Below are positions 2,875 to 3,975 of a DNA stretch of 64,000 bases, in pieces (position 1 is the stretch's first letter; every line of letters starts with the position of its first letter). The notes under the pieces were generated by a model, which worked only from the letters and a program-made list of their open reading frames with translations, was not told where the DNA came from and made no database searches. Both the position numbers and the translations under genes were made by a program. This DNA is from Escherichia coli (GTDB lineage Bacteria; Pseudomonadota; Gammaproteobacteria; Enterobacterales; Enterobacteriaceae). The DNA lies in NCBI RefSeq assembly GCF_013315695.1, contig NZ_CP054353.1; one strand, given 5' to 3'.

Positions 2875-3975
2875 ATGAAATTAAAAATAGTTGCGGTGGT
2901 TGTAACTGGTTTGTTAGCTGCGAACGTAGCACACGCTGCCGAAGTCTATAACAAGGATGGTAATAAACTCGACCTTTATGGCAAGGTTACCGCTCTACGT
3001 TATTTTACTGATGATAAGCGTGACGATGGTGATAAAACTTATGCCCGTCTCGGCTTTAAAGGAGAAACGCAAATCAATGATCAAATGATTGGTTTTGGTC
3101 ACTGGGAATATGATTTTAAAGGCTATAACGATGAAGCCAACGGCTCGCGCGGTAACAAGACCCGTCTGGCCTATGCAGGTTTAAAAATTAGTGAATTTGG
3201 CTCTCTGGACTATGGTCGTAACTACGGTGTCGGCTATGACATTGGTTCATGGACCGATATGTTGCCAGAATTTGGTGGCGATACCTGGAGTCAGAAAGAT
3301 GTCTTCATGACATACCGTACTACCGGTGTGGCAACCTATCGCAACTACGATTTCTTCGGCTTAATTGAAGGTCTGAACTTTGCCGCGCAATATCAAGGCA
3401 AAAATGAACGCACTGACAATGGTCATCTTTATGGTGCTGACTACACGCGTGCCAATGGTGACGGTTTCGGTATCTCCTCAACTTATGTTTATGATGGCTT
3501 TGGTATCGGTGCGGTGTATACCAAATCCGATCGGACAAATGCGCAGGAAAGAGCCGCTGCTAATCCTCTCAATGCCTCCGGTAAGAATGCAGAACTGTGG
3601 GCTACAGGTATAAAATATGATGCCAACAACATCTACTTTGCAGCTAATTACGCTGAAACATTAAACATGACCACCTATGGCGATGGTTATATCTCTAACA
3701 AAGCACAAAGTTTTGAAGTAGTGACACAATATCAATTCGACTTCGGCTTGCGCCCATCACTCGCTTACCTGAAATCGAAAGGCAGAGATCTGGGCCGCTA
3801 CGGCGACCAGGACATGATTGAGTATATCGACGTTGGTGCGACGTATTTCTTCAACAAAAATATGTCGACCTATGTTGATTATAAAATCAACCTGATTGAT
3901 GAAAGCGACTTTACCCGTGCCGTAGATATTCGCACCGATAACATCGTCGCAACGGGAATTACCTATCAGTTCTAA
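2875..3975 (+). CDS. General outer-membrane porin, OmpC/OmpF/PhoE family, intact (position of K-12 yddL fragment)
   Basis: 366 aa, signal peptide ending [21 protein letters not shown]-terminal ...GITYQF typical of enterobacterial porins; AT-rich flanks. Confidence 0.85.

Follow-up and report, generated by a model that had tools for sequence, protein, structure and literature searches.

The 64,000-nucleotide stretch of Escherichia coli DNA analysed here (contig NZ_CP054353.1, assembly GCF_013315695.1; hereafter the window) carried, directly beside yddG, an intact member of the enterobacterial OmpC/OmpF/PhoE general porin family. This gene very probably encodes a functional porin and constitutes the chromosomal positional orthologue of OmpD in E. 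coli, being the same gene as Z2239/EC042_1601. The orthology reading was based on the shared chromosomal slot, the homologous 5' leader, the OmpD-type signal peptide and a synonymous divergence like that of the backbone genes around it. The gene has already been described, as Z2239 of EHEC O-island 62 and as EC042_1601 'ompD' of EAEC 042, and the additions made here are modest: the anatomy of the yddL deletion, the frequencies of three locus states, purifying selection, the syntenic argument for OmpD, and the codon bias and the MicC and SdsR sites predicted to have been lost. An earlier note on this DNA had recognized an intact porin at the yddL position; that reading held, but the note had missed the OmpD synteny, the frequency of about 20% and the prior description.

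Gene structure and signals

The porin ORF covered positions 2875..3975 on the + strand and encoded 366 aa, from an ATG at 2875 to a TAA at 3973-3975 in both the ORF list and the raw sequence (Table 1). As the earlier note had stated, the protein was complete, with a signal peptide and a C-terminal aromatic residue; the signal peptide comprised 21 aa and the chain ended in YQF. The N-terminus resembled a Sec signal peptide in having two lysines and a hydrophobic core, with A-H-A at positions -3/-1, and the mature chains of solved OmpC/OmpK36 structures aligned from residue 22 in a PDB sequence search. The first 21 residues are predicted to form a cleavable Sec signal ending in AHA, after which the mature chain started with the family pattern AE(V/I)YNKDGNK; it closed with the beta-signal ...ITYQF. 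The intrinsic terminator noted earlier 3' of the gene was also found. Its stem (3987..4010) comprised 9 bp, including 6 G-C pairs, and was followed by TTTTTGATTT, with a folding energy of -18.2 kcal/mol (z = -3.7) that none of 200 shuffled sequences equalled. The G+C content of the gene was 44%, compared to 50% in the flanks and 34-36% in the adjoining leucine-rich-repeat (LRR) genes.

Table 1. Features of the porin locus in the window. Promoter and leader are predicted from comparison with Salmonella ompD.
Feature	Position	Strand	Basis or remark
Putative promoter (TTGTGT 2766-2771, 18-nt spacer, TAAAAA 2790-2795, start G 2802)	2766..2802	+	Salmonella ompD homology
Putative 5' untranslated leader, A/U-rich, conserved with the Salmonella ompD leader	2803..2874	+	Alignment
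Shine-Dalgarno AAGGA	2861-2865	+	9 nt ahead of the porin ATG
Predicted signal peptide, residues 1-21	2875..2937	+	Sequence comparison; OmpD-type, not NmpC/Lc-type
Mature 345-aa porin, 16-stranded beta-barrel	2938..3972	+	Pfam, PDB matches, AF2 model
Porin stop codon TAA	3973..3975	+	Raw sequence
Intrinsic terminator, 9-bp G+C-rich stem, 6-nt loop, T-run	3987..4016	+	Folding
Segment deleted in K-12-type strains	3153..4691		Junction sequences; 1.54 kb
Segment absent from ST131/B2-type strains	2694..6850		narU directly after yddG

Family, fold and pore

Residues 27-366 matched the whole Pfam model PF00267 (Porin_1, positions 1-337 of 337; E = 1.5e-133), and PDB sequence matches to OmpK36, OmpC and OmpF had E-values of 1e-127 to 1e-100, OmpK36 and OmpC being the best (about 1e-126, roughly 60% identity). 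The AF2 model possessed 16 strands (pLDDT 74, pTM 0.74) and superposed on OmpC, OmpK36 and OmpF with Foldseek TM scores of 0.84-0.87, the top match being OmpC 2j1n (TM 0.85). The PEFGGD motif of the L3 constriction loop was conserved, as were K16, R42, R82, R132, D113 and E117 (OmpF numbering), and all ten constriction positions checked were identical to those of OmpF, OmpC, PhoE, OmpN and OmpD. The Porin_1 match, the solved relatives, the modelled fold and the constriction residues together support the assignment to the general-diffusion porins. By analogy with these relatives, the protein would be exported by Sec and assembled by BAM into a trimer of 16-stranded barrels, through which small hydrophilic solutes would cross the outer membrane via a pore narrowed by L3, with the acidic residues of this loop presumably lying opposite basic residues clustered on the wall of the barrel.

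Identity and annotation of the porin

The comparison with known porins that the earlier note had advised gave identities of 61% with K-12 OmpC, 60% with OmpF, 59% with PhoE and 62% with OmpN. Values were higher for a Citrobacter koseri porin (77%), Enterobacter cloacae OmpD (75%), Salmonella OmpD (73%) and NmpC/Lc (68%). In RefSeq the gene is labelled 'ompC: porin OmpC' because it narrowly clears the NCBIfam model NF007841 (493 bits for a cut-off of 484), which is a subfamily model and not an equivalog. The OmpC label is therefore an artefact of annotating with a subfamily-level model, and as a result carrier genomes seem to hold two ompC genes.

The Z2239 product is recorded as 'putative outer membrane porin, O-island 62' (PMC3420319). 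EHEC O-island 62, located between yddG and narU, comprises z2239-z2242 and corresponds to orfs 1601-1599 of EAEC 042; it has been tied to ECOR group D, O157:H7, O55:H7 and some Shigella, and K-12 yddL has been noted to resemble the 5' end of z2239 (PMC3079680, Okeke et al. 2011). In strain 042, where a 366-aa porin gene was confirmed to adjoin yddG, an 'apparently functional ompD (Ec042-1601)' has been counted among six porins and equated with K-12 nmpC (PMC2808357, Chaudhuri et al. 2010); ompC, ompF, phoE and ompN are reported to be carried besides the yddG-linked gene (PMC2808357). The Sakai name would be ECs2076, going by the equivalence of Z2240 and ECs2075. In the literature searched, no mention of ECs2076 was found, and 'yddL porin' occurred in gene lists only.

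Synteny and divergence

The gene order in the window was fdnG (- strand), yddG (1736..2617), the porin, two LRR genes and narU (6992..8422). The same slot was occupied by a porin gene in Salmonella (NCBI-named OmpD, P0036) and C. koseri, in the order fdnIHG-yddG-porin-GFA-MFS-TetR-narU-narZ. The ompD gene of Enterobacter hormaechei also adjoins yddG, and its product admits carbapenems and is required for virulence (PMC11874173). Within Escherichia, E. albertii possessed a porin gene beside yddG that was 91% identical to the window gene. In one E. albertii genome (CP034213.1; locus L017, 6137..8014) the orthologue was split by IS1, another independent inactivation.

Sequence similarity to ompD extended beyond the coding region. 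The 120 nt upstream of the porin ATG aligned with the ompD leaders of Salmonella and C. koseri and were clearly homologous, and the signal peptide pattern MKLK(I/L)VAV.VT.LLAA...A was common to the porin and the OmpD proteins but not to NmpC. Between the window and Salmonella, dS was 2.3 for the porin, 2.1 for yddG and 1.7 for narU, so that the porin had diverged like the flanking backbone genes, as vertical descent would predict. When Salmonella was compared with C. koseri (loci L010 and L008), dS of ompD was 0.57, far below the values of the flanking yddG (3.4) and narU (1.2); this could reflect a strong codon bias that goes with high expression, or a recent exchange of ompD between the two genera.

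Phylogeny was assessed with neighbour-joining (NJ) trees only. In the mature-protein tree, from which the signal peptide and the chimeric sequence P0001 had been removed, the porin fell outside OmpC, OmpN, OmpF and PhoE and grouped with the OmpD proteins of C. koseri and Enterobacter at 100% bootstrap; the tree did not fix the branching order of the C. koseri/Enterobacter group, the Salmonella/C. freundii OmpD group and the NmpC/Lc group. A single 'OmpD clade' with 100% support in the full-length NJ tree was withdrawn, as it was driven by the signal peptide and by P0001. The latter, from a 2.1-kb ENA metagenome contig, was OmpC/OmpN-like in its N-terminal third and near-identical to the window porin from L3 on; it arose either through natural recombination or as an artefact of assembly.

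Deletions and distribution in E. coli

As the earlier note had stated, K-12 retained only a short porin fragment at this position, the 276-nt yddL pseudogene annotated as 'porin, incomplete, missing C-terminus'. Homology to K-12 ended at window position 3152 and restarted at 4692, where GCGCGG was joined to CAAGAATC with CGG common to both sides. Through this CGG microhomology the deletion joined the porin, at codon ~93, to a point midway in the first LRR gene, leaving the yddL stump. A second K-12 gap (window 5024..5665) fused the two LRR genes, and K-12 yddK/yddJ (locus L002, 6547..7922, matching window 4692..5023 and 5666 onward) was a chimera of both. The two gaps indicate that yddL, yddK and yddJ arose by deletion and not, as Okeke et al. 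suggested (PMC3079680), by insertion of yddK.

Among 5,426 complete E. coli genomes, the end of yddG was present in 5,388, the 5' third of the porin in 4,271 and its full 3' part in about 1,101-1,118. Roughly 20% of the genomes had an intact porin gene, 58% had a K-12-like stump and 21% had lost the gene entirely; the gene is thus dispensable, since most E. coli have lost it. At the megablast level the locus was single-copy in the 5,388 genomes, including the AR_0013 chromosome, which was 100% identical to the window. Intact alleles formed two groups: a 042-like group sharing 99% identity or more with the window, and a group from O157:H7, O55:H7 and O145:H28 sharing about 97.4%.

The ancestor of Escherichia probably already had the porin. 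About one fifth of E. coli, namely the O157:H7/O55:H7 and 042-like lineages, have kept it under purifying selection. A single 1.54-kb deletion produced the yddL stump of K-12-like strains, and in ST131-like strains the porin was removed together with the neighbouring LRR genes.

Both LRR genes showed differences from their counterparts in other strains. The first (window 4139..5405) had an apparent frameshift: its IpaH/SspH-like N-terminus (MIMTNINT...ERLAQWGNKSLNNGEERAIAVERIKESL) stopped at 4348 and the LRR body resumed in another frame (ORF 4239..5405), the PGAP annotation of AR_0013 giving a partial pseudogene only. This gene is an intact fusion in 042 (orf1600) and is split into z2240/z2241 in O157 (PMC3079680). 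The second (window 5468..6724; 34% G+C) encoded an intact 418-aa LRR protein, whose O157:H7 counterpart carries a frameshift and has been annotated as the T3SS effector EspR1. On the other side of yddG, the fdnG frame (window 917..1504 on the - strand and its upstream part) was broken at the expected in-frame TGA (selenocysteine), and RefSeq gives one FdnG of 1,015 aa.

Promoter, leader and small RNA sites

The earlier note had advised a search for a promoter and for sRNA target sites upstream of the gene. A putative promoter was placed by homology with Salmonella ompD, whose 5'UTR of 69 nt (PMC4911921) was mapped onto the window; on this basis transcription would start at G 2802 (-73 from the ATG), behind a weak -35 element. 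A consensus sigma-70 scan of the A+T-rich intergenic region matched several sites at 9/12, none of which lay at the Salmonella-homologous position, and these sites were given no weight. The A/U-rich leader of Salmonella ompD is an Hfq site (PMC4911921), and the leader of the window gene may function likewise. A search for CRP sites (TGTGAN6TCACA, up to 2 mismatches) gave one weak match at 2714..2729, with 13 matches in the window as a whole compared to 27.5 in shuffled sequences, so that the weak match carries no information. A scan of 2400..4400 against Rfam (E <= 1) detected no known RNA element, only a chance match to a plant miRNA.

Pairing with the E. coli sRNAs MicC, RybB and SdsR was predicted with RNAduplex on the window, Salmonella and C. 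koseri mRNAs, with 100 shuffles each. The latter two mRNAs served as controls, and the published sites were recovered on both, with 0-2 of 100 shuffles as good for MicC and RybB; for SdsR, the observed energy was reached by 1 of 100 shuffles in the case of Salmonella and by 5 of 100 in that of C. koseri. On the window mRNA, MicC and SdsR paired no better than with shuffled sequences: the MicC duplex had -6.8 kcal/mol (-15.8 in Salmonella) and was reached by 72 of 100 shuffles, and the SdsR duplex -17.2 kcal/mol (-33.5 in Salmonella), reached by 28 of 100. The predicted RybB site was marginal, with -13.7 kcal/mol compared to -18.3 in Salmonella, 8 bp including two G-U pairs, and 10 of 100 shuffles reaching it; it corresponded to a residual RybB-complementary octamer, GCGGUGGU, at +19..+26 of the porin, within the part coding for the signal peptide. 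MicF pairing was no better than for shuffles on the window, Salmonella or C. koseri mRNAs. These predictions suggest that the post-transcriptional control of the porin has diverged from that of Salmonella ompD, which bears on its regulation and not on its identity.

Constraint and expression level

The window gene and the O157:H7 allele differed by 19 synonymous and 4 non-synonymous substitutions, corresponding to a dN/dS of 0.055. This indicates constraint on the porin and argues against a dead gene. The codon adaptation index (CAI), calculated with Sharp-Li weights that ranked the known genes as expected, was 0.38 for the window porin. This resembled the quiescent or conditional PhoE (0.36) and OmpN (0.47) and was unlike the abundant OmpF (0.66) and OmpC (0.82); for OmpD the index was 0.66 in Salmonella and 0.72 in C. 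koseri. Such a value argues against high expression. In a proteome of O157 grown in DMEM, Z2239 was reported with two peptide hits (PMC3420319, Kudva et al. 2012). The low CAI, together with the predicted loss of the MicC and SdsR sites, suggests a minor or conditional porin.

Alternative explanations

Other readings of the locus were weighed against that of a functional positional orthologue of OmpD. The RefSeq name and the score just above the NF007841 cut-off would fit a misassembled or recent duplicate of ompC or ompF, a reading with practically no probability left: identity is only 61% to OmpC and 60% to OmpF, more than 1,100 complete genomes assembled independently carried the gene once each and in one and the same chromosomal location, and the true ompC lies elsewhere. 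The earlier note had itself named this duplicate as the case that would overturn its reading, and identity, single copy and the separate ompC locus ruled it out. It is also improbable, though less so, that the porin is a horizontally acquired O-island 62 gene which came to lie in the ompD slot by coincidence or replacement and is not a true OmpD orthologue. Okeke et al. proposed that the whole island was acquired (PMC3079680), and such an origin would agree with the patchy distribution within E. coli, the long branch with only 73% identity to Salmonella OmpD, and a G+C content below that of the flanks in a gene contiguous with the LRR genes. That content is nevertheless well above that of the LRR genes, and the gene has a leader and a signal peptide homologous with those of ompD, which occupies the same slot in Salmonella, C. 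koseri and Enterobacter, while the close relative in E. albertii and a dS resembling that of the neighbouring backbone genes also speak against acquisition. Moreover, K-12-type strains retain the 5' third of the porin and the promoter region, and the B2 pattern resembles loss and not an empty ancestral site.

A positional orthologue of OmpD might still be intact and effectively silent, like ompN or nmpC in laboratory strains; it would then play no part in permeability in ordinary circumstances and would be in the course of being lost. This is unlikely, although it carries more weight than acquisition. It would account for a CAI well below that of the abundant porins (0.66-0.82), the weak -35 predicted and the lack of a consensus promoter at the homologous site, the roughly 79% of complete genomes without an intact copy, and the O157 proteome evidence, whose two peptides might be common to other porins. 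Against it, dN/dS was low between alleles about 2.5% apart, the full-length copies sampled were all annotated as CDS with no frameshift or stop seen, the Shine-Dalgarno site, leader and terminator were intact, and the protein has been reported in O157 (PMC3420319). The functional OmpD orthologue remains the preferred reading. A wider proposal is more tentative and somewhat short of an even chance: that the yddG-linked porin, and not prophage nmpC, is the true OmpD of E. coli. Having lost its codon bias and its MicC and SdsR sites, it would have been demoted in Escherichia from a major porin under sRNA control to a minor or conditional one; selection would maintain it in phylogroup D/E-type lineages only, with two or more independent losses elsewhere.

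Implications

The yddG-linked gene adds a fifth or sixth general porin to about 20% of E. coli, including the O157:H7 and 042-like lineages, and leaves known porin biology unchanged. Such an extra porin is relevant where porin loss is invoked to explain carbapenem or cephalosporin resistance, as well as to phage and colicin host range and to porin-based antigens; it may itself affect permeability and the repertoire of phage and colicin receptors. If it is the true OmpD, it could offer carrier clones a back-up entry route for beta-lactams and a strain-specific target for phages or antibodies, and much of the sRNA, vaccine and GWAS literature would be using prophage nmpC as 'E. coli OmpD' in place of the yddG-linked gene. 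nmpC has been treated as the E. coli equivalent of OmpD in several papers (PMC3333887, PMC10321414, PMC2808357), and as it is often called 'ompD', comparisons with the regulation of Salmonella OmpD may address the wrong E. coli gene. The 'ompD' of the olaquindox paper was considered as a further instance of the yddG-linked porin and set aside, as it is an Lc-type porin in ATCC 25922.

Comparison with known porins

The window gene and Z2239/EC042_1601 are the same gene in the same locus (yddG-LRR genes-narU), the 042 allele differing by 1 aa and the O157:H7 allele by 4 aa; the neighbouring LRR genes differ between strains in their frameshifts. E. coli OmpC has the same fold as the porin, which clears the NF007841 subfamily model only narrowly, but the true ompC (b2215) lies in the ftp-ompC-micF-rcsD locus, and no micF was present beside the yddG-linked gene. 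An OmpC orthologue within E. coli would be expected in that locus and at about 90% identity or more; the porin lies outside it, at 61%. NmpC and Lc belong to the same family but are prophage-borne (lambdoid DLP12, PA-2), whereas the porin gene is on the chromosomal backbone with no phage genes around it. The signal peptide of NmpC is longer and different (MKKLTVAISAVAASVLMAMSAQA), and its identity with the porin is 68%. Salmonella OmpD is more similar to NmpC/Lc (80-81%) than to the porin (73%), which counts against the orthology reading.

The nearest full-length relatives outside Escherichia were the yddG-linked OmpD proteins of C. koseri, E. cloacae and E. hormaechei, relative to which the E. 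coli porin had a much longer branch, a lower G+C content and a lost codon bias. With Salmonella OmpD it shared the yddG-narU slot, the fold and the pore residues, together with a homologous signal peptide and 5' leader. Identity between the two was 79% in the strands and 66% outside them, the surface loops being different; the published MicC (+67..+78) and SdsR sites of Salmonella ompD were degraded in the E. coli porin mRNA by prediction, and RybB pairing was weakened; and the downstream genes were GFA/smvA/smvR in Salmonella and the LRR genes in E. coli.
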